Origin: Bdellovibrionales bacterium
GTDB lineage: Bacteria; Bdellovibrionota; Bdellovibrionia; Bdellovibrionales; JAUICD01
DNA: 64,000 bases
Reading direction: 5' to 3'
NCBI GenBank assembly: GCA_965197425.1
Contig: CBDANC010000015.1
Span: 352,001-416,000 of the forward strand
Shown here: positions 718-63,694 of the stretch, in pieces
Layout: each line of letters begins with the position of its first letter
Position numbering within the stretch: the first letter of the stretch is position 1
Program-made: the position numbers and the translations under genes
The notes under the pieces: generated by a model
Told to the model about the DNA's origin: nothing
The model's input: only the letters and a program-made list of their open reading frames with translations
Databases searched by the model: none

Positions 718-893
718 ACCAACACTGGTTGGATCGGGCAGGCAGGCAATCCGGCAATCCGGCAGACAGGCAATCGGGCAATCAAGCAGACAGGCCATCC
801 GGAATTTGGCAATTGTCTCCTTTTTTAAAAAAATATTTCCTCCTAGGTAAAAACTATAGAGCAAATATTTTTTCTAAAAAAAGGAGACAACTT

Positions 894-1253
894 ATGAAAA
901 AATTAAAAACATACCAACTAGCTATTAAATTCTATAAAAATTCTAGAGACCTTCACCTAAAGGAACCACTTAAGGATCAGTTCCAAAGAGCTACCCTAAG
1001 CATTGTACTAAATATTGCAGAAGGAAGTGCCAAACCGACCGCAGGGAGGTTATTTCAATTGGAAAATATAAAGATTTATCCCGTGAGCCAATTGAACCAA
1101 CCCACAACAAAAGATAGAAGAAAGTATTATAGAACCAGCCTCGGCTCACTCAGAGAAACACAAGCAATACTAGAAATCATAAACCACAAAAACCTAATAG
1201 AAGAAGCAAATATACTCGGAGGATATCTATACAAACTGTGTAAGAATACATAG
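894..1253 (+). CDS. Four-helix-bundle protein (23S rRNA IVP/Avd-like), copy A, with 22-aa in-frame insertion
   Basis: QFQRATLSIVLNIAEG...SLGSLRE motif; ATG 894 after AAGGAG matches the starts of the paralogs; ORF-track start at 729 is repeat-derived. Confidence 0.85.
   Translation: MKKLKTYQLAIKFYKNSRDLHLKEPLKDQFQRATLSIVLNIAEGSAKPTAGRLFQLENIKIYPVSQLNQPTTKDRRKYYRTSLGSLRETQAILEIINHKNLIEEANILGGYLYKLCKNT
1035..1100 (+). repeat. 66-bp hairpin miniature element, copy 1 (in-frame inside copy A gene)
   Basis: Absent from the four paralogous genes; 64/66 identical to reverse complement of 10157-10222; internal TTCAATTGG/CCAATTGAA inverted repeat. Confidence 0.85.
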
Positions 1254-1339
1254 GATAGAGCAGGCAATCGGGCAATCGGGCAATCGGGCAATCGGGCAAT
1301 CCGGCAGTCGGGCAGACAGTATCAGGTATCTAGCTTCTT

Positions 1340-1470
1340 TTAATTTTTCCAAAAAAATTAAGGATATTACGGGTGCCTGGTGGCGGATGTCAGATGCAGA
1401 TAACAGATCCCGGAGTGCCAGATCCCAGAGCTGATTGGGTAAATCGGACAATCAGACAGGCGCAGATAAG
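1340..1470 (-). repeat. Gene-less (solo) cassette leader, heptamer type, after the stop of the convergent gene
   Basis: Reverse complement GATCTGGCACTCCGGGATCTGTTATCTGCATC...CCGTAATATCCTTAATTTTT resembles 48734-48806 upstream of copy E. Confidence 0.7.
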
Positions 1471-1478
1471 TGAAGTAG

Positions 1479-2696
1479 TTAAGTTTGTTCTGGAGGCGGC
1501 GGAGTTTGTTCTGGCGGCTTATTTGCTTCCTTATGTTTTTCTAGTAGATCAGCTATAAATGATTGTGCTTCACTTGCAATTGTTCTTAGCTCACCTTCAG
1601 AAGACTGGGATATTTTTTCCAATTTTTCTGTCATCGTTTCATATTCGGAGGTGTCTATCTTAGTTTGCTCGTTTACACTAGAGATACTTCTTTGTTGTGT
1701 CTCTTCAGAACCTTCTTGTGTAGGCTGATCTTCTTCGTGAGAAGCTAGGTTTCTTTGTGCTAATTTTTTTCCAATTTTGATGGCTTCTATTTTTACAGAG
1801 AAGTCTTCGTCATCCAAAACTTGGTTTATTATGCTTGCGTGTTTATATGACGAAGTATACTGTTCTAATGATTCACTTGCCTTACTTACTACATAGTCAA
1901 ATGGTGAGTTATTTTTTTGATAAGCTAATTCTTTAAAACTTCTTGGGCTTGGAGTTTGTGATAAAGCGAGAAGGCCATGCTGCCTTACCAAGGCATTTTC
2001 ACTTTTTAATGTGTTAGATATTATAGAATAAAATGTTGCAGCGGATACTTCACCAGCGTGAAACGCGTCTATAAACCTTTTTGTTGTTTTCAGCGATGGA
2101 GAGCTTAGTAGTGATTTGGACCAGTGACCTGTGTTGTTGTCCACTTGGTTTGGGGTGTTAGTTTGATCATACATAGGGCTTACAGCTCCACCAGCTACAT
2201 AGCCGGGGAATGCGTTGTTTGCTTGTGGAGATGAATCATCGAAATCTGCATCTTCCGTATCTCCTAACATAGCTGTTTGATCATGTGGGGCTATTGGCGC
2301 TCCACCTACTACTCTTACAGCAACAGTATTTTTTGCTTTTTGACTTCCTTTTTTCTTTTCAGCTTTCTTGTTGTCATCAGTTTTTTTCTTTTCAGCTTTT
2401 TTTGCACTTCTCTTTTTTTCTTTTTCTTCGTCCTCGTCTTCTTGTGGTTTTTCTACCAATGGAGGTTGTTCAGGCTCTTTTTTTTCTCTGGTTGTTTTTT
2501 TAAACGAAATGGATTTATTAAGCCATACCTTTTTCTCTAGGGTAGTTCTTTTTCCAAGAATACCCAGGTCTCTTTTTTCCTCGTGTATCTCTCTGGTATT
2601 GTTTGCAGAAAATATCATACCAATGGCTCCAACCATTACAGTTGTAACCACAATAAATGCTATCTTTTGCTTCTTGGAAAACATGCCAAAACCCAC
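1479..2696 (-). CDS. Hypothetical membrane-anchored protein with Lys/Glu-rich linker and helical-repeat-like C-terminus
   Basis: 405-aa ORF with N-terminal hydrophobic helix; no family recognised. Confidence 0.6.
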   Translation of the reverse strand: MGFGMFSKKQKIAFIVVTTVMVGAIGMIFSANNTREIHEEKRDLGILGKRTTLEKKVWLNKSISFKKTTREKKEPEQPPLVEKPQEDEDEEKEKKRSAKKAEKKKTDDNKKAEKKKGSQKAKNTVAVRVVGGAPIAPHDQTAMLGDTEDADFDDSSPQANNAFPGYVAGGAVSPMYDQTNTPNQVDNNTGHWSKSLLSSPSLKTTKRFIDAFHAGEVSAATFYSIISNTLKSENALVRQHGLLALSQTPSPRSFKELAYQKNNSPFDYVVSKASESLEQYTSSYKHASIINQVLDDEDFSVKIEAIKIGKKLAQRNLASHEEDQPTQEGSEETQQRSISSVNEQTKIDTSEYETMTEKLEKISQSSEGELRTIASEAQSFIADLLEKHKEANKPPEQTPPPPEQT

Positions 2697-2855
2697 CCTC
2701 TAGACAAATACACCACTTTAGGATCATACAAAGTGGCAACTTTCTCAACAGGCCTTTAGCCCTGAATACTAATATCGGAGCTTTTTTATGGATCTATAGT
2801 TTAGTGTGCTAGGCATTTTGGAGATGTGGTTTTTAAATATGCTCTGTGATAGCAT

Positions 2856-4516: not shown

Positions 4517-5019
4517 AGGCAATCAGGCATTCTGGCAATCCGACATTCAGGGATCCGGTAATCAGTTATCGGTTAGCAGATAACAGATCTCAGATAACTG
4601 ATTGCCGGATCAAGTGTTTTTCCATAATTGGTATAAGAATCCCCCTAATGTATCTATTTCCTTTACGAGGTTTTTGTTGTCTATGATATCTAATATGGCC
4701 TGTACTTCTCTAAGGGAGCCTAGGCTTATCGCATAGAATCTTTTTCTATCTTTTGGTGTTGGTTTAGCACTTCCTTCTGCAATATTAAGGACAATGCTTA
4801 GAGTAGCTCTTTGGAATTGATTTCTAAGAGGTTCTCTTAGACAAAGCTTTTTTGAGTTTTGATAAAACTCTTTAGCTAGTTGGTATGTTTTTAATTTTTT
4901 CATAAAAAATTTCCTCCTTACTATCTTTTGATGGGAGGAAATTTTTTTGAAAAAATTAAATCAGTTGCCTGGTTACCGATATCAGTTCCCAGATAACAGA
5001 TCTAATCGATCATTCCGGA
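4517..5019 (-). mobile_element. Four-helix-bundle cassette copy B (heptamer-type leader)
   Basis: Begins at putA stop; ATCTG-type repeats; hairpin AAAAAATTTCCTCC/GGAGGAAATTTTTT abutting ATG; downstream 18/19-bp inverted repeat 4552-4570/4593-4611. Confidence 0.65.
4610..4903 (-). CDS. Four-helix-bundle protein (IVP/Avd-like), copy B
   Basis: 97 aa, NQFQRATLSIVLNIAEGSAK...SLGSLREVQ, ends LWKNT. Confidence 0.85.
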   Translation of the reverse strand: MKKLKTYQLAKEFYQNSKKLCLREPLRNQFQRATLSIVLNIAEGSAKPTPKDRKRFYAISLGSLREVQAILDIIDNKNLVKEIDTLGGFLYQLWKNT

Positions 5020-8963: not shown

Positions 8964-9179
8964 TTTATGAATCCCAGTTAAAAAAGTTGTAAATTACTTT
9001 GTAAGCTTGGTAAAAACAAAACATTTTAAAGATGTAATCTTGATTGCTGTGTGTCAAGCTTGGTTTTTATCTATTCATCTTCAAGGCTTGGCGAATTTTG
9101 TTGCCAGATCCCAGACTGCCAGTTTGCCTGAGTGCCTATCTGGTGAAGACCTTTAGTAACTTAAGTCATATTATACCTA

Positions 9180-9277
9180 CAGAGCTGGGCAACCCTGATA
9201 CTGAAAGTACCTTAGCTACACTTGTGCTTCGCACTGCACTTCGCTAAGGCAACTTTCAGTTTCAGTGAAGACCTTTA
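9180..9277 (+). repeat. Modular GAAGACCTTTA repeat with type I hairpin interior
   Basis: CAGAGCTGGGCAAC...ACTGAAAGT...ACTTTCAGT...GAAGACCTTTA; closely similar inverted copy at 9991-10089. Confidence 0.8.
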
Positions 9278-9337
9278 GTGTCATATTTTTTATTTGCATT
9301 TTGAGTGGTGGTGAGCGAAGAGTTTTGTTTGTGTGGG

Positions 9338-9380: not shown

Positions 9381-9988
9381 TGTTTGTAGCGTTTGATTTA
9401 GAAACTACCGGTTTTATGCCTGGGGTTGATCGTATAATTGAAATAGGAGCAGTTAAATTTGATGGGCTAAAGCCTATAGATGCTTTTGTAAGCCTCGTAA
9501 ATCCTAGAATGGAAATACCACAATCATCAACCGACATAACCGGCATTACGAACGAAATGGTAAAAGATAATCCTCCTATAGAAAATTTGCTAGATGGGTT
9601 TGCCAAGTTTTGTAGCGGGCATCTGATGGTTGCACACAACGCCCCATTTGATTTTCAGTTTTTGGTAGAGGACATAAAAAGATATGAATCAAATTCACCC
9701 ACCAACTATATATTTGATACCTGCTCTATTTCTAGAAAAGTTTTTCCAGGGCTTATTAACTATAAATTAGGAACACTCACACATTATCTAAAAATTAAAT
9801 CCTCTGGATTTCATCGAGCAAAACAAGATGCAACCCTATGTGGGTATGTATTTGTAAATATCTTAAAAAAGATTAAAATGGAAGACTCAAGCATTGAGCT
9901 TTTTGATGCTTTAGCTAAACTTAGTAAAAATCCTCCACTAAAATTCCCTAAAATCCATAAAATTCATAAACAAGCCACATTATTTTGA
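9380..9988 (+). CDS. DEDDh 3'-5' exonuclease (DnaQ/PolC-exo-like)
   Basis: FVAFDLETTG, AHNAPFD, HRAKQDA motifs; start placed at ATG 9380 because the longer ORF reads through a repeat. Confidence 0.9.
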   Translation: MFVAFDLETTGFMPGVDRIIEIGAVKFDGLKPIDAFVSLVNPRMEIPQSSTDITGITNEMVKDNPPIENLLDGFAKFCSGHLMVAHNAPFDFQFLVEDIKRYESNSPTNYIFDTCSISRKVFPGLINYKLGTLTHYLKIKSSGFHRAKQDATLCGYVFVNILKKIKMEDSSIELFDALAKLSKNPPLKFPKIHKIHKQATLF

Positions 9989-9990
9989 TA

Positions 9991-10271
9991 TAAAGGTCTT
10001 CGCTAAAACTGAAAGTTGCCCAGGCGAAATGCAGTGCAAAGCACAAATGTAGCCAAGGTACTTTCAGTATTAGAGTTGCCCAGCTCTGGACACTGATGCC
10101 GATCCCGTTACATAAGGTCTTCCGAACGAGACAAAAATAAGGAGGCTACGCCTACTTTGGTTCAATTGGCTCACGGGATAAATCTTTATATTATCCAATT
10201 GAAATAACCTCCCTGTGGTCGGTTTTTTATCCGAGTGGTTGCCCGGCTCTGGAACAAGATGCTGATCCCGT
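9991..10271 (-). repeat. Two tandem modular repeats (9991-10108 type I; 10113-10271 type II carrying the 66-bp element)
   Basis: Each unit reads ACGGGATC.GCATC..T.TCCAGAGC.GGGCAAC...GAAGACCTT on the minus strand. Confidence 0.8.
10157..10222 (-). repeat. 66-bp hairpin miniature element, copy 2 (nested in modular repeat)
   Basis: Reverse complement 64/66 identical to 1035-1100; absent from equivalent repeat at 54449-54539. Confidence 0.85.
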
Positions 10272-10497
10272 CACACAAAGATTTTCCTATGTCCGTCTGA
10301 CTGATTGTCACTGTTCCCAGCCTGCCTGTTTGCCAGATCCAGAGATCATTTATTTTTAGTTGATTATTTGGTTGGATTTGTGTATGGATTTGTTCTGGTT
10401 ACATATTTTTGTAACTTTCCCTTGGCTTCCCTTGATTTTGTTATATTTGTTTTCGGTGGTCTGTGAGCCTCTGGGTTTTATTATTTTGGTGTTGTAT

Positions 10498-22646: not shown

Positions 22647-22715
22647 GAGCTGGGCAACCACTCGGCAAAAAGGAAAGCAAAGCTTCTCTTATTTGCCTCG
22701 TTAGGAAGACCTTTA
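22647..22715 (+). repeat. Modular GAAGACCTTTA repeat, type II interior, ending at next start codon
   Basis: GAGCTGGGCAACCACTCGG...CTCGTTAGGAAGACCTTT-ATG. Confidence 0.75.
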
Positions 22716-23317
22716 TGTTAAATCCTTTTAAGTATTTAAAATTAAATGAAATAAAAACATGGTTCTTCCTGGGTATTTTTTTAAGTGTATTTATACTCAT
22801 AGTTTTTGGTTTGTTGTCTTATAGAGAGGTTAATAGAATTTTATCTACTAAGCCTACTTCTTGGACAAAGGATCACAGGGCTGATTGTGGTGTTGTTTTA
22901 ACTGGTGGTTCTTATAGGGTGAGGGAAGGGTTGGATTTGTTAACCCAGAAGAATATCAGGAAGCTGATAATATCTGGAATTTACCAAACCACTACCTTGG
23001 ATGATATTTTTCCAGAGATTCCTTTTTATGGTGATATTAGAGTTGAAGATATTGTCTTAGAGAACATGTCTGAGACTACTTATGGCAATGCAAAAAAAGT
23101 TTTTGTGTTAGCAGAGGAGTTGGACTGTAGTGATATTGTGTTGATAACCTCAAGACTTCACATGTACAGAGCTTATAGAACCTTTAGAGCTGTGTTTCCA
23201 AAAGATTATAAAATCCAACAGAGGGCAGTAATATCTGGAAACTTAAGACCTAATAAGTTAAATATTTTATATGAAGTTGCAAGCTCAATATTATATAGAC
23301 CACTATGGCTACTTTAA
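22715..23317 (+). CDS. YdcF/DUF218-family protein
   Basis: VVLTGG..RV, LIISG, SETTYGNA, ITSRLHMYRA. Confidence 0.85.
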   Translation: MLNPFKYLKLNEIKTWFFLGIFLSVFILIVFGLLSYREVNRILSTKPTSWTKDHRADCGVVLTGGSYRVREGLDLLTQKNIRKLIISGIYQTTTLDDIFPEIPFYGDIRVEDIVLENMSETTYGNAKKVFVLAEELDCSDIVLITSRLHMYRAYRTFRAVFPKDYKIQQRAVISGNLRPNKLNILYEVASSILYRPLWLL

Positions 23318-39523: not shown

Positions 39524-39778
39524 GCAGGCAATCGGGCAGTCAGGTAGGCAGGCAATCGGGCAGTCAGGTAGGCAGGCAATCGGGCAGTCAGGTAGGCAGG
39601 CAATCGGGCAGTCAGGTAGGCAGGCAATCGGGCAGTCAGGTAGGCAGGCAATCGGGCAATCGGGCAATCGGGCAATCGGGCAATCGGGCAATCGGGCAAT
39701 CGGGCAATCGGGCAATCGGGCAATCGGGCAATCGGGCAATCGGGCAGTCAGGCAGTCAGGCAGTCAGGCAGTCAGGCA
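39515..39778 (+). repeat. 264-bp octamer-periodic tandem array
   Basis: 6x GTCAGGTAGGCAGGCAATCGGGCA, then 11x ATCGGGCA, then 4x GTCAGGCA. Confidence 0.95.
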
Positions 39779-39953
39779 ATTGCCTCCTTTTTTTAAAAAA
39801 TATTTCCTCCCAGCTAAAAACTATGGAGCAAAAAAATAATCCGGCAGTCAGGCAAACAGGCAAACAGGCACACCGGCAATCCGGGATCTGGTGATTGATT
39901 AAATTTTCTAAAAAAATTTCCTCCCATCAAAGATGGTAAGGAGGAAATTTTTT

Positions 39954-40247
39954 ATGAGAAAATTTAGAACTTATCAGTTAGCGGTTCAATTCTATAATAA
40001 TTCTAAGAATTTATATTTAAAAGAACCGCTAAAGAATCAATTTCAGAGAGCTACCTTAAGCATTGTGCTCAATTTAGCAGAAGGAAGTGCCAAACCTACA
40101 ACCAAAGACAGAAGAAAATTCTACAGAACCAGCCTAGGCTCACTTAGAGAAACACAAGCTATACTGGATCTCATAGATCATAAAAAGCTACTAAATGAAG
40201 CAAATAAACTAGGAGGATATCTTTACAAACTGTGTAAGAATACATAA
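39954..40247 (+). CDS. Four-helix-bundle protein (IVP/Avd-like), copy C
   Basis: 97 aa from ATG 39954 after GGAGG; ends LCKNT. Confidence 0.85.
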   Translation: MRKFRTYQLAVQFYNNSKNLYLKEPLKNQFQRATLSIVLNLAEGSAKPTTKDRRKFYRTSLGSLRETQAILDLIDHKKLLNEANKLGGYLYKLCKNT

Positions 40248-40431: not shown

Positions 40432-40535
40432 GATGGGAGAGGGTGGAGAAATTTTTTTGAAAAAATTAAATCAGTTGCCTGATTACCGATATCAGTTCCC
40501 AGATAACAGATACCAGATAACTGATATCAGATATC
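40432..40535 (-). repeat. Gene-less (solo) cassette leader nearly identical to copy B leader
   Basis: AAATTTTTTTGAAAAAATTAAATCAGTTGCCTG.TTACCGATATCAGTTCCCAGATAACAGAT shared with ~4939-5001. Confidence 0.8.
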
Positions 40536-44886: not shown

Positions 44887-45799
44887 AATAGTTGTTAAAG
44901 ACTCAGATAAAGTTATAGAAATTCCTCAGCATGATATAAATCAAAAAGACATTGAACAAAAAACAGCCTTTTTTAGAGAACAAACTAAAACAAATAATAC
45001 CACAGAACTTATTCCATACATTGACCTAACCAACCTAAATGAAACTGATACAAAAGATGATATTAAAAAACTTGTAAATAAGGCTTTGTCTTTAAAACAT
45101 AAAAATTTACCATCTGTAGCAAGCATTTGTATCTATCCTTCCATGCTAAAGTTTGCAAAAGAAAGACTGGATGGAAACTCCACTTGTAGTGAAAACTCCG
45201 CTCGTAGTGGATACTCCACTGGTAGAAGTAGCAAAATCAATGTGGAAACTCCACTGGTAATTGCTACAGTTACGGGTGGTTTTCCCTCCGGAAAACTTAA
45301 CTTAGAATCAAAGTTGATAGAAACTAAAGAAGCAATCCAAATGGGGGCAGATGAAATTGACTTTACTATTTGTAGAGACTACTGTAAGCCTTCCGAAGCC
45401 CAAAAATTATTTGATGAAATTTACAATATAAAAAAACTAGTGGGAAGAAGACCTCTAAAGGTAATTTTGGAGACAGAAGAGCTACATAGCTATGACAAAA
45501 TAAAATTGGCATCCAACATAGCACTCTATGCAGGTGCTGACTTTATCAAAACCTCAACAGGAAAAATTAAAGGTCCACTTGATCACAAAATAGCCTCTTT
45601 TCTAGTTATTATGGATAGCATCCTAGATTTCTACAACCAAACAAAAAAGCAAGTTGGTATAAAGGTATCCGGAGGTATTAGTGGGGTGGATACAGCCATG
45701 CTCTTTTTTAATATGGTACAAACACAAATGGGGGAAAAATGGGTAAGCCCCAAATTTTTTAGAATAGGCTCAAGTAAACTTATGGATAATATTGTTTAG
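44879..45799 (+). CDS. deoC: Deoxyribose-phosphate aldolase with repeat-derived insertion
   Basis: IDLTNL, GADEID, LKVILET, GADFIKTSTGK, KVSGGI, RIGSS. Confidence 0.92.
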   Translation: MNKIVVKDSDKVIEIPQHDINQKDIEQKTAFFREQTKTNNTTELIPYIDLTNLNETDTKDDIKKLVNKALSLKHKNLPSVASICIYPSMLKFAKERLDGNSTCSENSARSGYSTGRSSKINVETPLVIATVTGGFPSGKLNLESKLIETKEAIQMGADEIDFTICRDYCKPSEAQKLFDEIYNIKKLVGRRPLKVILETEELHSYDKIKLASNIALYAGADFIKTSTGKIKGPLDHKIASFLVIMDSILDFYNQTKKQVGIKVSGGISGVDTAMLFFNMVQTQMGEKWVSPKFFRIGSSKLMDNIV

Positions 45800-46368
45800 A
45801 TCGGGCAATCGGGCAATCGGGCAATCAGTCAATCAGGCAATCGGGCAATCGGGCAATCGGGCAATCAGTCAATCAGTCAATCAGGCAATCGGGCAATCGG
45901 GCAATCGGGCAATCAGGCAAACTGGCTATGGTCTCCTTTTTTTAAAAATATTTCCTCCCAGATAAAAACCATGGAGCAAATATTTTTTTCAAAAAAAGGA
46001 GACTATATACATTATGAAAAATTTTAAAACATATCAATTAGCTGTTCAGTTCTACAATAATTCTAAAGGGATATACCTAAAAGAACCACTCAAAAATCAA
46101 TTCCAAAGAGCTATATTAAGCATAGTATTAAATTTGGTTGAAGGTAGTGCAAAGTTCAGTAACAAAGAAAGACGAAAATACTACAGAACCAGTTTAGGCT
46201 CACTTAGAGAAACACAAGCTATACTAGATCTCATAGATCATAAAAAGCTAACAGAAGAAGCAAGTAGGTTAGGAGGGTATCTTTACAAACTTTGCAAGAA
46301 TACATAATCGAGGAACCAGGCAACGGATCACAGATTCCAGATAACGGATCCCCGATCTAGTCGGGCAA
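45800..46368 (+). mobile_element. Four-helix-bundle cassette copy D
   Basis: 15 octamers (ATCGGGCA/ATCAGTCA/ATCAGGCA) 45800-45919 starting right after deoC TAG; GTCTCCTTTT/AAAAGGAGAC hairpin; gene. Confidence 0.65.
46014..46307 (+). CDS. Four-helix-bundle protein (IVP/Avd-like), copy D
   Basis: 97 aa, ends LCKNT. Confidence 0.85.
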   Translation: MKNFKTYQLAVQFYNNSKGIYLKEPLKNQFQRAILSIVLNLVEGSAKFSNKERRKYYRTSLGSLRETQAILDLIDHKKLTEEASRLGGYLYKLCKNT

Positions 46369-46833
46369 TTATGAGCGTCCAGATCGGATCTTAGATTGCA
46401 TTCGAGCCATGAGACTTACAGCCATTCTTTCATGAGCCTCACACATTCTAAGCTCATCTTTTCTATAACTTTTTTGACTTGGTGTTAGAGCACCCATTTC
46501 TATTTCCATTTCATAATCCAGCTTGTTGGACCTGATGCTTTCCAACTCCTTTGATTGCTGCTTAAACAACTTCACAAGACCACTATTAGGAGCAATCTCA
46601 AGCCACTCCTGCTTGCTCTTATACCAGCTAACCATTCTTAGAAATCTTGCCTTGTTCTTGGCCAGAGTAAATTTAGGATAATCAGACTCATCTAGATGTA
46701 GTATGTTATCCTGTCTCCACCTCTCCTTGTTCTTATCATCACTCCAAGGATTCTGTTTGTCCCAAGGCTTTACCTTCTTTGACAGAGAATCCGTTACAGA
46801 AGGATCCCCTCTATCCGTTTCGATATTATCCAC
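46369..46833 (-). CDS. Hypothetical protein
   Basis: 154-aa ORF with purine-rich SD-like upstream. Confidence 0.6.
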   Translation of the reverse strand: MDNIETDRGDPSVTDSLSKKVKPWDKQNPWSDDKNKERWRQDNILHLDESDYPKFTLAKNKARFLRMVSWYKSKQEWLEIAPNSGLVKLFKQQSKELESIRSNKLDYEMEIEMGALTPSQKSYRKDELRMCEAHERMAVSLMARMQSKIRSGRS

Positions 46834-47032: not shown

Positions 47033-48688
47033 TTGTTACGAAGCACCATGGTTTTGAAATTATCTGGTGTTTTGGTTTTTATTTTTGTTGGTGTGGCCAG
47101 TTATATTTATGGCCAGAGTGGTTCTGATGTAGTGGGTAATTGGTATAGTGTGTTGCCCCCTGTATTTGCGGTTACTGTAGCTCTTATTACCAACAATGTT
47201 TTTATAAGTTTAATTGGTGCGGTTCTTCTTGGTGCTTTTTTAATCAAGATGCCTTCTGGTGAATTTCTTACGGGTGTACTTGATTCACTCTACAAGTTTT
47301 TTAGTATTCCTATTCTGGAGTTAACAGATACTTTTAATCTTCAGGTCATTGGTTTTGTTGTATGTGTTTTGGCTTTGATCTCTGTTGTTATAGTTTCTGG
47401 TGGTTTAAAGGCTGTGATTCGGTACATATCGGTTTATGCGAATGGCAGAAAGTCTACTAATTTTGTAACCTTTGTTTTGGGAATTTTGATGTTCATAGAT
47501 GATTATGCCAATACTATGTTGGTTGGCTCTTCTATGAGAGGAGTCTATGATGCAAATAAAATTTCGAGGGAAAAGCTGGCATTCATAGTTGATTCAACAG
47601 CAGCTCCCATTGCTGGGCTTGTTTTTATAAGTACTTGGGTTGGGTATGAAGTTGGTCTTTTGGGTCAGGTAGCGGGTGATTTAACCCTAGGGGTAGGGGG
47701 TTTTTCTATGTTTTTTGATGCAGTAATTTTTAGATTTTACTGCATATTTACATTGGTGTTTGTGTTGGTGAACATATTTTTGGATAAAGATTTTGGACCA
47801 ATGGCCTCTGCTGAGGCCAGTACCACACAGGTTCCTGTTAGTAAAGAAATTCAATCAGACAAAAATGCTGTGCCTAGTGTTATGGTTGCGCTAGTGCCAA
47901 TGGTGTTTTTGGTTTTGTATGTATTTATGGGTCTGTGGATAGATGGTGGAGGAGGTAAGGTTATAAGTGAAAAGTCCGTTTTATCTCTTCTTAGTTTTTC
48001 TGATTGGAAAGATGTAGTATCCGCTTCAGAAAATAATATATTGATACTTTTTCATGCCTCTCTATACGGGCTTATTTTGGCTATGATTTTGGGAATATCT
48101 ATCTCAAAGGTTCATGTAAGAAATATCTTTAAGGGCGCACTACGTGGTGTTAAAAAGAGTATGCTTCCTATTTCTATCCTAGTGCTGGCATGGTCTATTA
48201 AAACAGTTTGTAAAGAACTTGAGACAGGACCGTTTTTGGTATCAATCTTGGCAGACTCTATATCTCCAGTTTGGTTTCCTATAATACTTTTTGTTATCGC
48301 CGGATTAACAGCATTTACTACCGGTACTTCTTGGGGAACCATGGCTATTCTCATTCCATTTGCAATTCCATTGGCAAGTGCATTGGACGGAGGAGCTTAC
48401 GGGCTGGTTACCATACTTTCCGTGGCTACTATTTTAGACGGTGCAATTTTTGGGGATCACTGCTCTCCGATTTCAGACACAACAATTATGAGTTCGATAT
48501 CAAGTGGATGTGATCATATGTCACATGTAAAAACCCAAGCACCTTACTCAGTGGTTATAGCATCTGTAGCTTTGATTGGTTATTACTTATCTAGTATGGT
48601 CCATTTTGTAATAACATTTGCTTTAGGCATTGCTTTAATATTTCTGTTACATAAATATCTATGTAAGCTCTGGAACAAAAATAGTTGA
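47033..48688 (+). CDS. NhaC-family Na+/H+ antiporter-like transporter
   Basis: FIDDYAN, SREKLAFIVDSTAAP, TGTSWGT, GDHCSPISDTT. Confidence 0.9.
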   Translation: MLRSTMVLKLSGVLVFIFVGVASYIYGQSGSDVVGNWYSVLPPVFAVTVALITNNVFISLIGAVLLGAFLIKMPSGEFLTGVLDSLYKFFSIPILELTDTFNLQVIGFVVCVLALISVVIVSGGLKAVIRYISVYANGRKSTNFVTFVLGILMFIDDYANTMLVGSSMRGVYDANKISREKLAFIVDSTAAPIAGLVFISTWVGYEVGLLGQVAGDLTLGVGGFSMFFDAVIFRFYCIFTLVFVLVNIFLDKDFGPMASAEASTTQVPVSKEIQSDKNAVPSVMVALVPMVFLVLYVFMGLWIDGGGGKVISEKSVLSLLSFSDWKDVVSASENNILILFHASLYGLILAMILGISISKVHVRNIFKGALRGVKKSMLPISILVLAWSIKTVCKELETGPFLVSILADSISPVWFPIILFVIAGLTAFTTGTSWGTMAILIPFAIPLASALDGGAYGLVTILSVATILDGAIFGDHCSPISDTTIMSSISSGCDHMSHVKTQAPYSVVIASVALIGYYLSSMVHFVITFALGIALIFLLHKYLCKLWNKNS

Positions 48689-49177
48689 TCGGACAACCAA
48701 GTAGCAGTCAATCGGGTGTCTGATTAGATCTGTGATCTGGCACTCAGGGATCTGATATCTGCATCCGGGATCTGGCATCAAGCATCCGTAATATTCTTAA
48801 TTTTTCCAAAAAAATTTCCTCCCATCAAATGATGGTAAGGAGGAAATTTTCTATGAAAAAATTAAAAACATACCAACTAGCTAAAAAGTTTTATCAAAAC
48901 TCAAAAAAACTCTGCTTAAAAGAACCACTAAAAAATCAGTTCCAAAGAGCTACCTTAAGCATTGTACTAAATATCGCAGAGGGGAGTGCCAAACCAACAA
49001 TAAAAGAAAGAAAAAGATTCTATGTAATAAGCCTAGGATCGCTTAGAGAAGTACAAGCCATACTAGATCTGATAGAACACAAAAACCTAATGGAAGAAGC
49101 AAATATACTCGGAGGATTTTTATACCAATTATGGAAAAATACATGATCCCAGGATGCCAGATCCCAGATCTGGTATT
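48689..49177 (+). mobile_element. Four-helix-bundle cassette copy E (heptamer-type leader)
   Basis: Starts at nhaC stop; GATCTG-type repeats; AAAATTTCCTCC/GGAGGAAATTTT hairpin; gene. Confidence 0.65.
48853..49146 (+). CDS. Four-helix-bundle protein (IVP/Avd-like), copy E
   Basis: 97 aa from ATG 48853; ends LWKNT. Confidence 0.85.
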   Translation: MKKLKTYQLAKKFYQNSKKLCLKEPLKNQFQRATLSIVLNIAEGSAKPTIKERKRFYVISLGSLREVQAILDLIEHKNLMEEANILGGFLYQLWKNT

Positions 49178-52749: not shown

Positions 52750-52798
52750 TTTAGTTACATCTTCTATTTCATATCATAGTTTTAAGAAAGTATTGTAC

Positions 52799-54436
52799 TC
52801 ATGTGTCTGTGTAGCCAGGGCCGCCACCTCCCTCAGGCGGGACCCAAGAAATATTATTGTGCGGGCATTTTATATCACATGCTTTGCAGTGAATACAGTT
52901 AGTATAATTCACCTGAAGGTTATGCTTGCCTGATTCTTCTACCATCTCATATACATTGGCTGGGCAAAAGAAATGGCAGGGTGAATTAAATGTTTCATAA
53001 CAGCTATCACTACATATCTTAGTATTGTGTACCTTCAAGTGATTTGGTGAATTTTCATCGTGTTTTGTTTTGGTTAAATAGACACTTGAAAGTTTATCTA
53101 AAAATAACTTGCCATCAGGTTTAGGAAGAGAGTTTATTTCTTTTTCTTTTTTGTTACCCCAAACATCTAGAACAGGCAATGTGGTTTTGTAGTCTTTTTT
53201 GACATTTTTTCCACTTTTTAGTTTTTGAAAAAGTAATGATGGTATAGATGAAATAATATTGGGGGTTAGTGAGTGGTGAAAATTTCTAACTTCAAATAGT
53301 TCATCTCTTATGTAGCTGTTATTTACTTTATCTTGGTATTTTTCAAGTTGTTTAGAAAAGTCATTTTTTTTAAGACATTCTACTATTGTTTCAGAGGCTA
53401 GTATTCCTGCTTTCATACCCAGGTGAATTCCTTTTAGTTTCTTGTCATCCACCATTCCTGCAGAATCACCTATAACCAGCATGCCATCTGCAAAAAGCCT
53501 TGGCATGGAGTTATATCCTCCAGAGGGTATGCACCTTGCTGCATACGATACTACCTCTCCACCTTTGATCATCTTGTATATGAAAGGATGAGCCTTTAAT
53601 TGTTGAAGATATCTGTGTGGATCAAATAAAGGGTCTGTTGTGTTTAAGTACCCAACCAAGCCTACTACTAAATCCTGTTTGGATATTGCGTATAGAAAAG
53701 TTCCTCCCACGGATTTTTTTAGTGGATAGCCTAGAGTATGGATTATGGTTCCTGGAATAAATCGGTCTTCGTTTACATGGATGATTTCTTTAACTCCTTC
53801 GGAGTAGGTATCAGGAGATTTTCCTTTTCTTAAATCAAGTTTTTGGCAAACTTCTTGAAAAAGCGAACCTCTAGGTCCTTCTGCAAAAACTGTAACTTTT
53901 GCTTTAAGTTCAATCCCAGGTTCAAAGTTAGATTTTGGTTTGGAGTGTTTATCTAAACCCATGTCACAGGTTTTCACACCCACAACTTTGTCACCATCAT
54001 AGAGAGTTTCTATTGCTGAAAAACCAGTAAAAATATCCACACCTTTTTGAATGGCAATTTCAGAAAGCCACTTGTTAAACTTGGAAACTGATATTACATA
54101 GTTACCTTTATTTTTTAACGATGGTGGAACTGGTATTCTCAGGCTTTTGGACTCAGATAAAAAATAGAATCTTTCTTTTGATACGCCTATGTCCAATGGT
54201 GAGTTTAGATCTTTATGATTTGGAATTAATTCATTCAGAGCAATTGGATTTAACACAGCTCCGGATACGCTGTGTCCTCCAATAGCTTCTGCCTTTTCTA
54301 AAATAGCGACAGTTGGGTTTAAATTTTCCTTGGAAGCCACATTTTTTAAATGAATTGCCAAAGACAGTGCTGCTGAACCACCACCTACTATAAGTACATC
54401 AACACTGATAGGTTCTTGCTTTGTCACAATATTCAC
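52799..54436 (-). CDS. Electron transfer flavoprotein-ubiquinone oxidoreductase
   Basis: DVLIVGGG, SGAV, KGIHLGM, CPANVYE, NCIHCKACDIK, PEGGGGP. Confidence 0.92.
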   Translation of the reverse strand: MNIVTKQEPISVDVLIVGGGSAALSLAIHLKNVASKENLNPTVAILEKAEAIGGHSVSGAVLNPIALNELIPNHKDLNSPLDIGVSKERFYFLSESKSLRIPVPPSLKNKGNYVISVSKFNKWLSEIAIQKGVDIFTGFSAIETLYDGDKVVGVKTCDMGLDKHSKPKSNFEPGIELKAKVTVFAEGPRGSLFQEVCQKLDLRKGKSPDTYSEGVKEIIHVNEDRFIPGTIIHTLGYPLKKSVGGTFLYAISKQDLVVGLVGYLNTTDPLFDPHRYLQQLKAHPFIYKMIKGGEVVSYAARCIPSGGYNSMPRLFADGMLVIGDSAGMVDDKKLKGIHLGMKAGILASETIVECLKKNDFSKQLEKYQDKVNNSYIRDELFEVRNFHHSLTPNIISSIPSLLFQKLKSGKNVKKDYKTTLPVLDVWGNKKEKEINSLPKPDGKLFLDKLSSVYLTKTKHDENSPNHLKVHNTKICSDSCYETFNSPCHFFCPANVYEMVEESGKHNLQVNYTNCIHCKACDIKCPHNNISWVPPEGGGGPGYTDT

Positions 54437-54448
54437 CTTTAGTTACTT

Positions 54449-54630
54449 GATTGGCATCAGTGTACAGAGCTGGGCAACCACGAGTCAAAAAAAAGTAAGC
54501 ATAGCTTCCTTATTTTTTATCTCGTTCGGAAGACCTTTAGTGGAAACAGGCACTCGTCCAAAAAATGTTCTGTCTTCACTTGTACTTCGTATGCTCGTTA
54601 CGCCAGTCCATTTATTTGGCCTCACGAGGC
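54449..54630 (+). repeat. Modular GAAGACCTTTA repeat (type II, 54449-54539) followed by a type III module
   Basis: GGCATCAGTGTACAGAGCTGGGCAACCAC...CTCGTTCGGAAGACCTTTA; then CACTCG..AAAAAATG...CACTTGTACTTCG...CGCCAGTCCATTT similar to 63925-64000. Confidence 0.75.
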
Positions 54631-54636
54631 TCACCT

Positions 54637-54906
54637 TTATATTTCAAATGGTTTCGGGGAGATTAGTTTGGGTTTATTGAACTTAGAATAAGCAGCTATT
54701 CCTGACGGTAGAAGACCTAAATTCCTTGCTCTTTTAACTTCTAAAGACAACTTTTTTTGTTGCCTATAGCTAAGCTTACTTAACCTTGAGGGAATTATCT
54801 TAGCCCCTTCTGCTACAAACCTACGGAGGTCTATTGGATTTTTGTAGTCAAATACAAACCCTATAGGGTAATCCGATCTAAACTGTGTTTTGTTTTCATG
54901 CTTCAC
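54637..54906 (-). CDS. rpsR: 30S ribosomal protein S18
   Basis: DYKN, KIIPSRL, QKKL...VKRARNLGLLP. Confidence 0.88.
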   Translation of the reverse strand: MKHENKTQFRSDYPIGFVFDYKNPIDLRRFVAEGAKIIPSRLSKLSYRQQKKLSLEVKRARNLGLLPSGIAAYSKFNKPKLISPKPFEI

Positions 54907-55597: not shown

Positions 55598-55655
55598 AAA
55601 GCATTTTAAATGAGGTAACTAAGATCAATGTTTGGTTTTAAGTTACCGTGTCAAA

Positions 55656-55722
55656 CCGACCGTAAGGGAGGTTCTTTCAATTGGAAAACATAAAGGTTTA
55701 TCCCGTAAGCCAATTGGATAAA
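55656..55722 (+). repeat. 66-bp hairpin miniature element, diverged copy 3
   Basis: CCGACCGTAAGGGAGGTTCTTTCAATTGGAAAACATAAAGGTTTATCCCGTAAGCCAATTG aligns to 1035-1100. Confidence 0.8.
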
Positions 55723-55746
55723 ACGTAACTAATCAGTCAATTAATG

Positions 55747-60940: not shown

Positions 60941-61013
60941 AGCTTATCCAAAAATATTTTTGTTGTAATAGAAAACTTAGATGCTTAACAGTGGATATAG
61001 TCGTTTTTGTTTA

Positions 61014-61451: not shown

Positions 61452-61721
61452 ATGAAGCGCAAAGGTAGTATAAAGGCCAGGTGCAGTGTTCCATTGCTAG
61501 ATCTTCACGGAGTAACTTCGGATGAGGTTTTTGGTTTATTGGATAAATTTTTGTTAGATGCTATGGATGAAGTTGTGGTAAAGGTGATGCCTGGAAAGGG
61601 TACCGGTGTTGTAAAAAATAAAGTGGTGGAATACTTGGAAGGTGCTGGTTACAAATGGAGCTATGAGCTTAAAGGGGATGGCAACTATAACACTGGCGTT
61701 TTATTGGTTAGAATGGCATAG
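61452..61721 (+). CDS. Smr-domain protein
   Basis: LDLHG, GKGTG. Confidence 0.85.
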   Translation: MKRKGSIKARCSVPLLDLHGVTSDEVFGLLDKFLLDAMDEVVVKVMPGKGTGVVKNKVVEYLEGAGYKWSYELKGDGNYNTGVLLVRMA

Positions 61722-61729
61722 GATCTTTT

Positions 61730-62443
61730 ATGGCAAAGAAATTAACTAAGGAAGATTTAAGCACCAAGGGAATATTGCACAATATTGCTCTAGGGTCTTT
61801 GGCATTTTATCAAAATCACAAAAAACTGGTTATATTTTTGCTAGGATTTTTGGTTCTTGGTGGCATTTTTTTTAAGGTAATGTATGACAAAAAAAAGGGG
61901 GCCCTTCTGGAAGGTTTTAAAGCCCTATATGTACCAATGAGTGAACAAGAAAAAATAACTAAGTTAGAACTTGAAAAGGTAGAAGTAAATAGCCAAGAGA
62001 TTAATATAGAAGAAATAAAGTCTCAGGTGAAACTTGATTATGATAAGCTTCTTAGAGAGGAGCATCCAGATCAGGTTATGATTTTTGCTGCCTTGAATTT
62101 GGCAGATATTCACAGGAAAAATGGTGATATAGATGCCGCCATTTCTGCATTTTCAAATGTAAATTTAGATGGTAAATATTTTTTAAGTGGTCTAGGGGCT
62201 ATGATGTTGGCATCCTTGTATGAAGAGTCTGCTAATTGTGATAGAGCTTTGGAGTTATGGGATGAAGTTATAAAAAAGTTTTCTTTTTTTAGAACTGAAG
62301 CTCTGTTGAAAAAAGCTCTTTGTTTAGAAGATAGTGATATGGAGCAAGCTTTGGATATCTACACTAGGTTGTCGGTCGATTCGCCAGATACTTCTGAAGG
62401 TGTTTTAGCAAAAAAGCTACTTATGATTAAGCGTGGGAAGTAA
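61730..62443 (+). CDS. Membrane-anchored TPR protein (YfgM-like)
   Basis: N-terminal TM helix plus TPR-like helices; precedes BamB-like gene. Confidence 0.7.
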   Translation: MAKKLTKEDLSTKGILHNIALGSLAFYQNHKKLVIFLLGFLVLGGIFFKVMYDKKKGALLEGFKALYVPMSEQEKITKLELEKVEVNSQEINIEEIKSQVKLDYDKLLREEHPDQVMIFAALNLADIHRKNGDIDAAISAFSNVNLDGKYFLSGLGAMMLASLYEESANCDRALELWDEVIKKFSFFRTEALLKKALCLEDSDMEQALDIYTRLSVDSPDTSEGVLAKKLLMIKRGK

Positions 62444-63528
62444 TGAATATATTAAAAATTTTGTTATTAGGCTTACTTTTCGTCTCCTGTATTTCTGCTG
62501 GTGAAAAACCTATGGATGGTATGACAAGAAAGTGGATTAGAAGTACTATAAAACCCCCTTACTTAGGCCCCAAGTTATCTCATTTGATGAGTCCTGTTTT
62601 TTTGAATGAACTTGTAATTCAAGGTAATGGTCACGGCTCTTTGGTAGCTATAGACGCTGATAGTGGTAGGATTTCTTGGAAATTTAATGCTAAGCATGGG
62701 GTACATGGTGCCACTGTCTTGGGGGATAAGTTATTTTTTGGTACAGAAGCAGGTTGGGTTGTTTGCTTGGATAATAAGGGCAACCAACTTTGGGATTTAA
62801 AATTAGAAGCTGGTGTCTATTCAAAGCCTACAATACATGAAAACTTCCTTTATTTATTAACCGGCGATAATGCTGTCTATTCAATAAATCTAGATACTAA
62901 AAACATAACTTGGACTTACAGCCGAAACAGCAATGTTTCTATGAGTGTGTTAGGAAGTAGTTCCCCTATACCCTACAAAGATATTCTGTTGGTAGGCCTT
63001 AGTGATGGGTATCTGGTGACATTAAATCAAAAATCCGGTTTGTTAGTCTGGGAAAAAAAACTTAACACTTCAGATAAGTTTAAAGATATAGATGGGATGG
63101 CTTTGGACGGCGATATGTTGTATGTATCAAATTTTGATGCAGATTTACTTGGTCTTAATGCTAAAGATGGCAGCTTGGTATGGAAGAGCGAGAATTCGGG
63201 AGGAGGTAGTGATCCTACAGTAGCGGAAGATATTGTATTGATCTCATCATCTAACGGCGGCGTAGAGGCACTTAAAAAGGCTACGGGCGAAAAGCTCTGG
63301 ACATTTAAACTAAAATCAGGATTTGCAACAAAACCCCTGGTATCAAGTAACACTGTATATTTTGGCCAGAACAATGGTCCTGTTGTTGGTTTAGATATTA
63401 GAGACGGCAAACAACTGTTTTCTTATGCTGTTTCAGGGACATTGGCAACACCTAGTATATCCGGCAATACTCTTTACCTTATCTCTAATGCAGGTAATTT
63501 GAACGCCATAAACACCAACACTGATTGA
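62443..63528 (+). CDS. PQQ-like beta-propeller lipoprotein (BamB-like)
   Basis: Lipobox FVSC; repeated A.D..G...W blades. Confidence 0.8.
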   Translation: MNILKILLLGLLFVSCISAGEKPMDGMTRKWIRSTIKPPYLGPKLSHLMSPVFLNELVIQGNGHGSLVAIDADSGRISWKFNAKHGVHGATVLGDKLFFGTEAGWVVCLDNKGNQLWDLKLEAGVYSKPTIHENFLYLLTGDNAVYSINLDTKNITWTYSRNSNVSMSVLGSSSPIPYKDILLVGLSDGYLVTLNQKSGLLVWEKKLNTSDKFKDIDGMALDGDMLYVSNFDADLLGLNAKDGSLVWKSENSGGGSDPTVAEDIVLISSSNGGVEALKKATGEKLWTFKLKSGFATKPLVSSNTVYFGQNNGPVVGLDIRDGKQLFSYAVSGTLATPSISGNTLYLISNAGNLNAINTNTD

Positions 63529-63597
63529 TCCTGGTCCAACTAAAGCTAGGGAATTTTCATACTCCGCCAATTCACCTTGTTTCTAGCCTCATTAACC

Positions 63598-63694
63598 TCA
63601 CCTTATCTGGTATATTTTTAATTTTTTCATAAGATATGTTGTCTCTCTTTTTTTAAAAAAAGGAGACAATTGCCAGATCCCGGACTGCCCGATC
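63598..63694 (-). pseudogene. Truncated four-helix-bundle cassette copy F
   Basis: GATCGGGCAGTCCGGGATCTGGCAATTGTCTCCTTTT...GAGACAA leader, then MKKLKIYQIR-stop (63630-63598). Confidence 0.75.

Follow-up and report, generated by a model that had tools for sequence, protein, structure and literature searches.

A cassette of tandem arrays, a palindrome and a four-helix-bundle gene very likely spread as a selfish element in a Bdellovibrionales genome

The window analysed here, a stretch of 64,000 nucleotides from the 1.6-Mb genome (G000, 99% complete) of a Bdellovibrionales bacterium, carries the same small gene repeatedly between short tandem repeats, raising the question of how such a cassette came to be dispersed and which activity, if any beyond its own, moved it. 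Five intact paralogs and a truncated sixth had been proposed, and all six loci were recovered where they had been placed, with the following features.

733-802, + strand: copy 1 left array of 8-mer units, beginning 15 nt past the upstream gene's stop (717)
813-889, + strand: copy 1 palindrome, type A, with the Shine-Dalgarno (SD) sequence in its 3' arm (z -6.05 against shuffles)
894-1253, + strand: copy 1 four-helix-bundle gene, 119 aa, of which 22 aa come from an in-frame insert (97 aa otherwise)
1033-1100 (approximate ends), + strand: copy 1 66-nt insert, belonging to a separate dispersed repeat
1263-1470, no strand assigned: copy 1 right side, with a direct array (1263-1317), a hairpin-deleted centre (about 1341-1362) and lastly an opposite-strand array running to the convergent gene
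4960-5019, - strand: copy 2 left array, beginning at the upstream 965-aa gene's stop codon
4890-4960, - strand: copy 2 palindrome, type B, spanning the SD, the ATG and the first four codons (z -7.70)
4610-4903, - strand: copy 2 gene, 97 aa
4514-4611, no strand assigned: copy 2 right arrays, direct, then opposite-strand
39515-39888, + strand: copy 3 left side, a long array whose start lies in the upstream 587-aa gene's stop codon, with half of a broken type-A palindrome and a further short array
39900-39966, + strand: copy 3 palindrome, type B
39954-40247, + strand: copy 3 gene, 97 aa, sharing 94.5% identity with C15:418263, a locus beyond the window
40455-40535, - strand: gene-less array on the opposite strand, accompanied by one half of a type-B palindrome
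45800-45922, + strand: copy 4 left array, beginning at the upstream stop codon (45799)
45927-46007, + strand: copy 4 palindrome, type A
46014-46307, + strand: copy 4 gene, 97 aa
46308-46368, no strand assigned: copy 4 right arrays, reaching the convergent stop codon
48689-48788, + strand: copy 5 left array, beginning at the upstream stop codon (48688)
48797-48865, + strand: copy 5 palindrome, type B
48853-49146, + strand: copy 5 gene, 97 aa
49145-49172, - strand: copy 5 right array, in inverted orientation to the left array
63598-63694, - strand: truncated copy 6, comprising an array, a palindrome in shortened form and 10 codons, cut off by a modular-repeat piece

The original prediction of one common architecture holds for array, hairpin and gene, but there are two hairpin types, two array dialects (an 8-mer, GGCAATCG-like, and a 6-7-mer, GATCTG(G)-like) and a variable right side. 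Type A is about 80 nt long (copies 1 and 4, and in shortened form copy 6), and type B about 70 nt, extending into the first codons (copies 2, 3 and 5). Similarly, the predicted length of about 97 aa applies to copies 2-5 and fails for copy 1, whose protein has 119 aa because a member of a 66-nt dispersed repeat is inserted in frame; this repeat is found at 53 loci in the genome and occupies the same site in five cassette copies.

The five proteins of the window all scored above the curated cut-offs of PF05635 (48.9-62.5 bits against 33.8) and TIGR02436, in agreement with the family assigned to them beforehand. Structural modelling predicted four helices (pLDDT 97.6) with 2GSC and 2RLD as top matches, corresponding to the TIGR02436 proteins Xcc0516 (Z 15.3; profile comparison E 1e-24) and BT_0352 (Z 13.9; E 3e-11), the closest solved structures, which have five chains per entry and, unlike the cassette proteins, are longer than 97 aa. 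The suggested structural kinship to Avd of diversity-generating retroelements (DGRs) was also supported by the model (Z 11.6-11.8). Residues Q29, R32, S36, N40, E43-K47 and E66 are invariant in 73 sequences, and the 97-aa protein is basic (pI 9.9-10.1) and soluble. The median dN/dS of 0.14 over 74 of 78 pairs indicates purifying selection, which points to the protein as the specificity factor of the cassette.

A nhmmer search of the whole genome gave 21 gene-bearing loci, 13 of them intact, beside which gene-less arrays are present. The window proved to be the densest patch of the genome, with 5/21 gene-bearing loci on 4% of its length, so that the genome-wide total is about 21-25 rather than the very many copies that had been anticipated. 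No locus was found by nhmmer over 1,600,000 of the 1,600,901 bases of G001, a closed genome of the same genus. With an identical set of patterns, derived from the cassette flanks, 50 arrays were detected in G000 and 2 in G001, which excludes a chance origin of the arrays. Phylogenetic analysis placed 18/18 G000 genes in one clade (100/100), a genome-specific expansion, as are nine copies of G002 at 91-98% identity; across the order the family is patchy (72/201 genomes, 0-19 matches), and G000 has the highest density per Mb. The concern that the copies might be assembly artefacts can be set aside because the intact ones share only 68-95% mutual identity, and contigs of sequencing run X1, which may be the source sample, match the 3' junction of copy 4 and both junctions of copy 5 with 0 differences.

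What had been called a hairpin is a palindrome that extends across the ribosome-binding site (RBS) and first codons and shows compensatory changes. Each of the five folded window hairpins was more stable than 200/200 shuffles (z -4.0 to -7.7), and the cost of opening the RBS exceeded the 99th percentile of controls (median 5.1 kcal/mol) at 13/16 starts in G000 and 21/25 in G002 and G004. The outer arm covaries with the first codons (11.5/13 with its own, 10.4/13 with swapped ones, 0/5000 permutations), among copies that are related and not independent. The RBS hairpin is not general, however: in 63 distant relatives the median opening cost is 4.4 kcal/mol, and inverted arrays prevail by 27 to 4. 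In the genomes of six relatives, an RBS-to-RBS palindrome joins nine head-to-head gene pairs, at loci chosen for their opposed neighbours, and its arms are 86-100% alike versus 59-70% for the coding parts. Five remnants have one hairpin-deletion junction in common. Whole-cassette folds, computed with no control set, contained 5-31 long-range pairs.

Each of the 22 sites inspected is located between protein genes or behind a tRNA, none being inside a 23S rRNA gene, and the 64-kb window gave no Rfam match. Convergent gene junctions account for 9/22 sites against 11.6% expected (p 0.0005), and the upstream unit is co-oriented at 16-17/22 sites against 49% (p 0.02-0.006). An array starts within 20 nt of the stop codon at 16/1048 genes in G000 and at 0/1059 in G001, and two copies sit directly after tRNA genes. 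The copies favour the 3' ends of genes and tRNAs, a pattern that may reflect selection instead of targeting.

Comparison with relatives revealed the empty sites expected of a mobile unit. In G001 the flanking orthologs are adjacent at 15/22 cassette sites, with a gap of at most 216 nt at 14 of them and of 7 nt at the site of copy 5. Record 9 (9,395 nt) of sequencing run X3, from a strain 95-96% identical to G000, lacks the gene at both window sites that it spans, those of copies 4 and 5, and differs from G000 by 4-5% outside the gapped stretch. At the copy 4 site, the interval from 45793 to 46369, which encloses 575 nt in the window, encloses 151 nt in X3 and cannot accommodate the gene. At that of copy 5, the only empty site at base level, the 494 nt of 48679-49172 are replaced by 22 other letters, a short replacement rather than a clean insertion and one with no target duplication. 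Circles, cDNA and hairpin ends, as traces of a step of movement, were likewise not observed. Together with the genome-specific expansions, these sites uphold the earlier claim that array, hairpin and gene spread as a unit. Because 21 dispersed places are filled in G000 and the same places are empty in close relatives, the cassette is very likely mobile and has spread as a selfish element; how it moved is what we infer below. The empty alleles of X3 fit a loss in X3 and a gain from another strain equally well, and G001, from which the whole family is missing, gives no indication of which of the two occurred. Between copies 4 and 5 and the paralogs nearest to them, identity is only 81% and 84%, respectively, far below the 95-96% between G000 and X3, and the two are therefore not recent duplicates of a sibling now present in G000.

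These observations also bear on an old burst, in which the copies would have been inserted long ago, kept alike by gene conversion and left to decay, inactive now in this lineage, with the empty alleles of X3 created afterwards when direct arrays and palindrome mediated deletions. Nearest-paralog identities of 79-95%, mostly about 80-85%, would agree with this, as would the many internal deletions and start-less copies, the 151 nt retained at X3 site 4, which could be a solo array, and the flanking arrays, which are more often direct than inverted in 14/17 copies (inverted in 2) and, lying directly repeated on both sides, would favour deletion. Nevertheless, we consider an old burst unlikely given the dN/dS of 0.14 and 13 intact frames, the short array-less spacer at X3 site 5, which resembles the 7-nt gap of G001, the extra letters that X3 carries at junction 52795-52798 where the window has none, and the recent burst in G002 (91-98%); past mobility would still be required.

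The original prediction had invoked an enzyme supplied in trans and had looked to a co-occurring reverse transcriptase (RT) or RAYT. Neither expectation was borne out, and no enzyme was found that tracks the cassette across genomes. RT (PF00078) gave 0 matches in G000, where tblastn with the RTs of relatives also returned nothing, and it is present in only 7/18 multi-copy genomes, G002 and G021 being likewise without a match. Y1/RAYT (PF01797, NF047646) gave 0 matches in G000, G002 and G021, which are among the four genomes richest in copies, and tblastn recovered only a 17-aa piece on contig C11. Tyrosine recombinases, rve and IS110 were not found in G000; the Pfam scan covered all but 74 of its 231 genome-specific ORFs. 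Its IS1634-type transposase, with ends of 14 bp unrelated to the cassette, lies on C11, which looks foreign because it carries duplicate core genes and a G002-type repeat; the other DDE transposases are an IS4-like one on the small unplaced C9 and an IS1595 fragment, and the serine recombinase is common to G001. No terminal inverted repeats were seen, the cassette ends being variable arrays, nor was DGR-type adenine-biased mutation in the copies of G000 (varied third positions: A 51/57, T 21/23) or G002 (A 15/43, T 11/42, C 6/7, G 5/8).

It is accordingly doubtful that the cassette is a non-autonomous passenger moved by a specialised enzyme from another locus (RT, HUH/RAYT, DDE, Rpn or serine recombinase), perhaps lost since or brought in by a phage or plasmid, to which its own protein would be an accessory as Avd is to the DGR RT. 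The Avd fold and basic surface, the start-less derivatives at several loci and Y1-like matches in 15/18 multi-copy genomes are in its favour, as are two other non-coding repeat families of G000 (137 and 53 loci), which are absent from G001 and imply that some mobiliser was active. The Rpn nuclease (PF12784) is present in G000, G002 and G004 and not in G001 or G003, but G021, G025 and G026 are without it, and four genomes that have it contain few cassette copies or none. The uneven occurrence of RT, the lack of Y1/RAYT matches in three copy-rich genomes, the location of the IS1634-type transposase on the foreign-looking C11, and a cassette in which neither terminal inverted repeat, target duplication nor A-biased mutation was seen all count against a passenger.

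Strong RBS occlusion is known from type I toxin mRNAs. A host-useful regulator or addiction module, with a protein acting on host RNA (e.g. arrays at transcript 3' ends) or serving as a hairpin-repressed toxin and copies kept for their function, would suit this occlusion, the purifying selection and the location at transcript ends, but is very unlikely for a family that is absent from closed G001 and most of the order and variable between near-conspecific strains, whose protein is basic and soluble instead of a short hydrophobic peptide and whose Coxiella homolog did not slow E. coli growth. A type I toxin-antitoxin locus is not indicated by the product, a 97-aa basic helical bundle (pI 9.9-10.1) and no toxin peptide. 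A diversity-generating retroelement is not supported either, with no RT found in G000 and no adenine-specific mutagenesis seen, nor is a REP/RAYT element, Y1/RAYT having given no match in G000, G002 and G021. REP/RAYT elements and MITEs are intergenic and palindromic, lie near gene 3' ends and have more gene-less derivatives than full ones, all of which the cassette shares; it differs in that no Y1/RAYT or matching DDE transposase was found, its protein is without a nuclease fold, and terminal inverted repeats and target duplication were not seen.

We therefore favour, with a probability of about 0.5, a selfish cassette consisting of array, palindrome, four-helix-bundle gene and, in most cases, another array. 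It very likely reached the 3' ends of genes and tRNAs by spreading, probably by means of its own Avd-fold protein and host DNA enzymes and not a transposase or RT, the role of the protein being the part that we infer. The palindrome would be the core of the element. As RNA, it may block protein synthesis from read-through transcripts of host genes; as DNA, it would fold back on itself, which would explain the head-to-head dimers, the arms that stay alike despite gene divergence and the repeated hairpin loss between two short direct repeats. With its pI of about 10, the basic protein may attach to the palindrome or to the arrays, probably forming a pentamer as do its structural kin Xcc0516 and Avd, and bring host DNA enzymes to the structured ends. 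New copies could arise through fold-back or strand-switch DNA synthesis and be integrated at the short arrays, with host repair or recombination doing the joining, which would yield array-gene-array units, partial tandem copies, gene-less arrays and start-less derivatives moving in trans. Movement in trans, or exchange, is suggested by a tract of 80-83 nt that is identical in three copies otherwise 77-84% identical, and by the truncated chimera of copy 6, which is present at two loci, its junction recurring at C15:99940; gene conversion across the genome could account for such common tracts, mobility not being required.

No description of this cassette was found in the literature, and it is best read as akin to the ORF-bearing 23S rRNA intervening sequences (IVSs). 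According to one account (PMC4990558), these possess a stem structure, are patchy and horizontally acquired and have been termed selfish; the Coxiella burnetii IVS (helix 45) has a PF05635-family ORF behind variable tandem heptamers, a role of the ORF in mobility was proposed, citing Ralph and McClelland 1993, and never shown, and this Coxiella homolog of the cassette protein did not slow E. coli growth. The cassette resembles the IVSs of C. burnetii and Leptospira (S23p) in protein family and in short tandem repeats upstream of the ORF. Unlike them, it is found between ordinary genes or behind tRNAs and numbers about 21 copies, its stem appears to be a palindrome covering the RBS of the ORF instead of terminal repeats around the ORF, its flanking arrays are mostly direct, and its ORF is under purifying selection whereas the IVS ORF is decaying. 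Avd of Bordetella phage BPP-1 (PDB 4DWL, 8UB7) is, according to bioRxiv 10.1101/2023.10.23.563531, pentameric, binds an RNA stem-loop and is required by the RT; the cassette protein shares its four-helix-bundle fold and basic character, but with 8-9% identity, no RT found in G000 and no adenine-biased changes. The TAACTGA arrays of Beggiatoaceae (PMC4679880) and the GGGAATC arrays of Xanthomonas (PMC4692102) are intergenic heptamers of unexplained mechanism, for which term searches of the two main texts revealed no link to four-helix-bundle genes; like them, the cassette arrays are intergenic 7-8-nt tandem repeats, lineage-specific and often in inverted pairs, but are tied to a gene and absent from a relative without it.

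A wider reading, tentative at this stage, is a class of bacterial mobile elements that encode no catalytic enzyme for their movement, in which an Avd-like pentamer on a palindrome-centred element recruits host polymerase for fold-back copying, builds arrays and inserts at transcript 3' ends. It would also mobilise gene-less arrays and other small repeats of the host, account for 23S rRNA IVSs and for the surplus of heptamer arrays seen in bacteria, and be the likely source of DGR Avd. The cassette joins three old puzzles, namely the function of S23p/TIGR02436 proteins, the spread of 23S rRNA IVSs and the origin of lineage-specific 7-8-nt arrays, and if its protein is the mobility factor, it would represent a transposase-free class of elements and a plausible origin of DGR Avd. 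G000 is an unusually clean test bed, being small, with the highest copy density among the 201 genomes of the order, no RT, HUH or tyrosine recombinase found, a relative whose closed genome is empty, and alleles that differ between strains in being filled or empty, and the palindrome provides a defined cis element for mobility or binding assays.

All six loci of the window, five intact and a truncated sixth, were borne out as originally described, and the proteins of the five intact copies all scored above the curated PF05635 and TIGR02436 thresholds. The shared gene of about 97 codons held for the others, while copy 1 encodes 119 aa owing to an in-frame 66-nt repeat insert. The predicted structure of the copy 5 protein is a four-helix bundle (pLDDT 97.6), for which the best solved-structure matches were Xcc0516 (Z 15.3) and BT_0352 (Z 13.9); its match to Avd (Z 11.6-11.8) lies within the range usual for helical bundles. 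Homo-oligomer prediction with four chains of the cassette protein scored 0.31 against a mark of 0.42. The protein is under selection, with a median dN/dS of 0.14 (74 of 78 pairs computable) among the 13 intact 97-aa frames of the source genome, which share 68-95% DNA identity.

The genome-wide check for gene copies with nhmmer gave 26 hits, corresponding to 21 loci (five of them split by inserts) in the 1.60-Mb source genome (99% complete), beyond which at least three shorter gene remnants were found. A pattern set derived from the cassette flanks detected 50 tandem arrays in this genome, about one third without a gene nearby, versus two in G001, a genome of the same genus. Phylogenetic analysis placed 18 genes of the source genome in a single clade (100/100) and nine copies of the relative G002, 91-98% identical, in a separate one; those of the source genome have dispersed from one founder. 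Of 201 genomes of the order, 72 contain the family; matches range from 0 to 19 per genome, and their density per Mb is highest in the source genome. Metagenome contigs searched for close strains gave only distant relatives (36-56% identity).

Filled and empty alleles of the cassette exist. G001 (a single contig, 93% complete, its orthologs 69% identical at the median) contains no copy in the 1,600,000 of 1,600,901 bases searched. In the empty-site comparison proposed with the original prediction, 22 sites with a cassette or remnant were examined; at 15 of them the orthologs of the flanking genes lie next to each other in G001, with a gap of ≤216 nt at 14 of these; the other seven sites are non-syntenic there or hold other genes in between. 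Strain-level evidence came from sequencing run X3, whose strain is about 95% identical to the source genome and in which one 9,395-nt contig spans 44001-52794 of the window, with three long pieces differing by 4-5%. The copy 4 site measures 575 nt in the window versus 151 nt in X3, and the copy 5 site 494 nt versus 22 other letters. At 52795-52798, where the window holds nothing, X3 has 69 and 76 unaligned letters, and therefore an insertion. Pieces of other cassette copies are present in X3 and X5; runs X4 and X5 yielded short pieces only, and a joint at 63604-63733 in X5 was left out of account, being probably derived from a paralogous repeat. Assembly artefact, which would have undone the prediction, was checked with contigs of run X1, possibly the source sample, which cross three cassette junctions with zero differences. 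We estimate a probability of about 0.9 that the cassette is or has been mobile.

The nearest paralogs of copies 4 and 5 in the source genome are only 81% and 84% identical, which counts against recent copying, so that either a loss in X3 or acquisition from a different strain has to be allowed for. That the copies represent an old burst, now decaying, is unlikely. Between G002 and G004, usable synteny was lacking at the one locus tried. In G002 the ends of the cassettes are crowded on either side by other repeats, which left no target duplication definable.

Cassettes favour the 3' ends of genes. Convergent junctions account for 9 of 22 sites against 11.6% expected from 913 junctions of G001 (p 0.0005). 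At 16-17 of the 22 sites the unit upstream is oriented towards the cassette, against 49% expected (p 0.02-0.006). Arrays start ≤20 nt from the stop codon, often overlapping it, in 16 of 1048 orthologous genes of the source genome versus 0 of 1059 in G001, while a start codon was involved in one case only; tRNA-Arg and tRNA-Trp are each directly followed by a copy. Selection alone could explain this bias.

No dedicated mobility enzyme was found for the cassette. Six-frame family searches of the source genome revealed no reverse transcriptase (RT), Y1/RAYT, tyrosine recombinase, rve integrase or IS110, and tblastn with the RT and Y1 proteins of relatives added only a 17-aa piece on contig C11. 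PF00589 tyrosine recombinases, present in 14 of 14 control genomes, were found in neither the source genome nor G001, and therefore no XerC/XerD was found either. In a Pfam scan of 138 of 231 ORFs specific to the source genome (19 cassette ORFs skipped, 74 unscanned), transposases turned up on C11 (IS1634-type) and on the small unplaced C9 (IS4-like), along with an IS1595 fragment and a single Rpn nuclease. The ends of the IS1634 element are unlike those of the cassette. Contigs C11, C1 and C4 look foreign, since core genes are duplicated on them and a repeat of the G002 type is present, and probably belong to another organism of the G002/G004 kind; they also carry cassette-type arrays and the IS1634 transposase with 14-bp inverted ends. 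The original prediction had invoked an enzyme supplied in trans. RT occurs in 7 and Y1-like hits in 15 of 18 multi-copy genomes, and neither in the source genome, G002 or G021; the sole serine recombinase of the source genome is also in G001, and Rpn does not follow the cassette across 31 genomes. As none of these, nor tyrosine recombinase, rve or IS110, tracks the cassette, movement by such an enzyme is improbable.

In folding, the palindromic hairpin of each of the five intact window copies outdid all 200 of its shuffled sequences. These hairpins pair the Shine-Dalgarno sequence, type B additionally pairing ATG and the first four codons. The cost of opening -14..+3 exceeded the control 99th percentile (12.8 kcal/mol; median 5.1, 150 genes) at 13 of 16 starts in the source genome and 21 of 25 in G002/G004. 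The outer arm co-varies with the first codons (own 11.5/13 versus swapped 10.4/13, 0 of 5000 permutations; 19 distinct combinations, from related copies). On the opposite strand the upstream arm is a mirrored Shine-Dalgarno and start, of which the second gene remains in relatives as head-to-head pairs. Nine such pairs in six genomes, from 22 loci mostly chosen for opposed neighbours, form a near-perfect ATG-to-ATG palindrome of 76-160 nt that differs in sequence in each genome, with arms 86-100% and genes 59-70% identical; two more were unscorable, and one start is off by a base. At L200 (G025:C165) the head-to-head pair is enclosed by direct repeats of about 32 nt, one on each outer side. In five remnants of the source genome, hairpin and ATG have been lost at one shared junction, which lies between two short direct repeats. 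For 14 of 17 copies there, the two flanks agree better in direct orientation, as is also visible in G002, and each of these genomes holds a partial head-to-tail dimer (C15:418593 in the source genome). The family as a whole does not share the palindrome: the median opening cost at distant metagenome loci was 4.4 kcal/mol (63 scorable of 80). Of these 63 loci, 31 have tandem arrays within 200 nt, predominantly inverted (27 versus 4), compared with 1 of 170 control windows.

We propose, with about even odds for the scheme as a whole, that the cassette moves by its own protein, palindrome and arrays together with host machinery. The protein would itself give the element its specificity, as a basic oligomer that binds nucleic acid and resembles Avd but has no RT partner. 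As RNA, the palindrome may silence translation of read-through transcripts; as DNA, it may fold back, priming or marking copying and giving head-to-head dimers and homogenised arms. The arrays would provide joining ends for host recombination or repair, which could yield array-gene-array units, solo arrays and start-less derivatives. Strain-level polymorphism and the palindromic core make this mechanism open to direct testing.

There are also signs of exchange among copies. Three copies share an identical 80-83-nt tract over the 66-nt insert and are 77-84% identical elsewhere. The junction of truncated copy 6 with a modular repeat recurs at C15:99940. Four-gamete incompatibility reached 51-77%, part of which recurrent mutation in a star tree could supply, and it was therefore not taken as evidence of recombination; DGR-type A-mutagenesis was rejected, the substitutions being ordinary transitions without adenine bias. 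Loci of the 66-nt and modular repeats are as follows.

Dispersed repeats of the source genome (window coordinates)
1033-1100, 66-nt repeat
10150-10225, 66-nt repeat
55654-55728, 66-nt repeat
about 50 other loci of the source genome, 66-nt repeat (53 in all)
9144-9289, modular intergenic repeat
9987-10289, modular intergenic repeat
22647-22733, modular intergenic repeat
54433-54639, modular intergenic repeat
63727-64000, modular intergenic repeat

The 66-nt repeat, absent from G001, is nearly always nested in the modular repeat; five of the four-helix-bundle genes carry it as an in-frame insertion, all at one site. The modular repeat has 137 loci in the source genome and none in G001, and was not found in G002-G004 or G021; at 54433-54445 X3 is longer by about 126 nt, with a 13-nt stretch repeated on either side of the addition, so module number varies between strains. 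A different hairpin repeat of 130-170 nt forms nested clusters both beside and inside four-helix-bundle genes, often at the same codon, in G002 (L183-L196) and G004 (L203-L222), and was not found in G003 in one locus search.

Among described elements, the ORF-bearing intervening sequence (IVS) of 23S rRNA comes closest. In the parts consulted, the Coxiella IVS encodes the same protein family, its ORF lies behind variable tandem heptamers, RNase III cuts it, and the paper cites, as an idea not yet put to the test, that the ORF takes part in mobility (PMC4990558). The cassette resembles it in make-up and is not a member because it lies outside rRNA and is multi-copy. It is a real and very likely mobile cassette, a variant of the IVS-type selfish element. 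The Coxiella IVS is described there as non-toxic in E. coli (PMC4990558), and retention of the cassette for a host-useful or addiction role appears very improbable. Compared with diversity-generating retroelements (Avd background in passages of 10.1101/2023.10.23.563531 and PMC10053308), neither RT nor A-mutagenesis was found for the cassette, and compared with REP/RAYT no RAYT was found. Members of the family are noted in cas loci in the part of PMC3936711 consulted, and the passages searched of PMC4679880 and PMC4692102 describe unexplained heptamer arrays with no mention of the gene. A literature search, covering main texts and not supplements such as Supplemental Table 7 of PMC4679880, found no repeat-flanked or palindrome-centred four-helix-bundle cassette outside rRNA.

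Other features of the source genome were recorded. Five related blocks of 8-10 kb are present, and the one looked at encodes two large proteins, of 1200 and 1533 aa, neither of which matches a Pfam family.

Related 8-10-kb blocks in the source genome
C6:46655-54707
C12:75206-83106
C13:281076-288771
C14:350427-360899
C15:151461-160853

A 791-aa ORF at window 40607-42982 contains Gly-Met-Pro repeats (42196-42673) and matched nothing in Pfam. Many genes of C13:99000-200000 are absent from G001, and the region holds one Rpn nuclease alongside CBASS-like (SMODS and patatin), DarT, HipA, BrnT, ParE and ankyrin genes. At C15:344777-347488 (L239), between two tRNA genes, three adjacent proteins consist of repeated HTH units of the transposase type and lack a catalytic domain.
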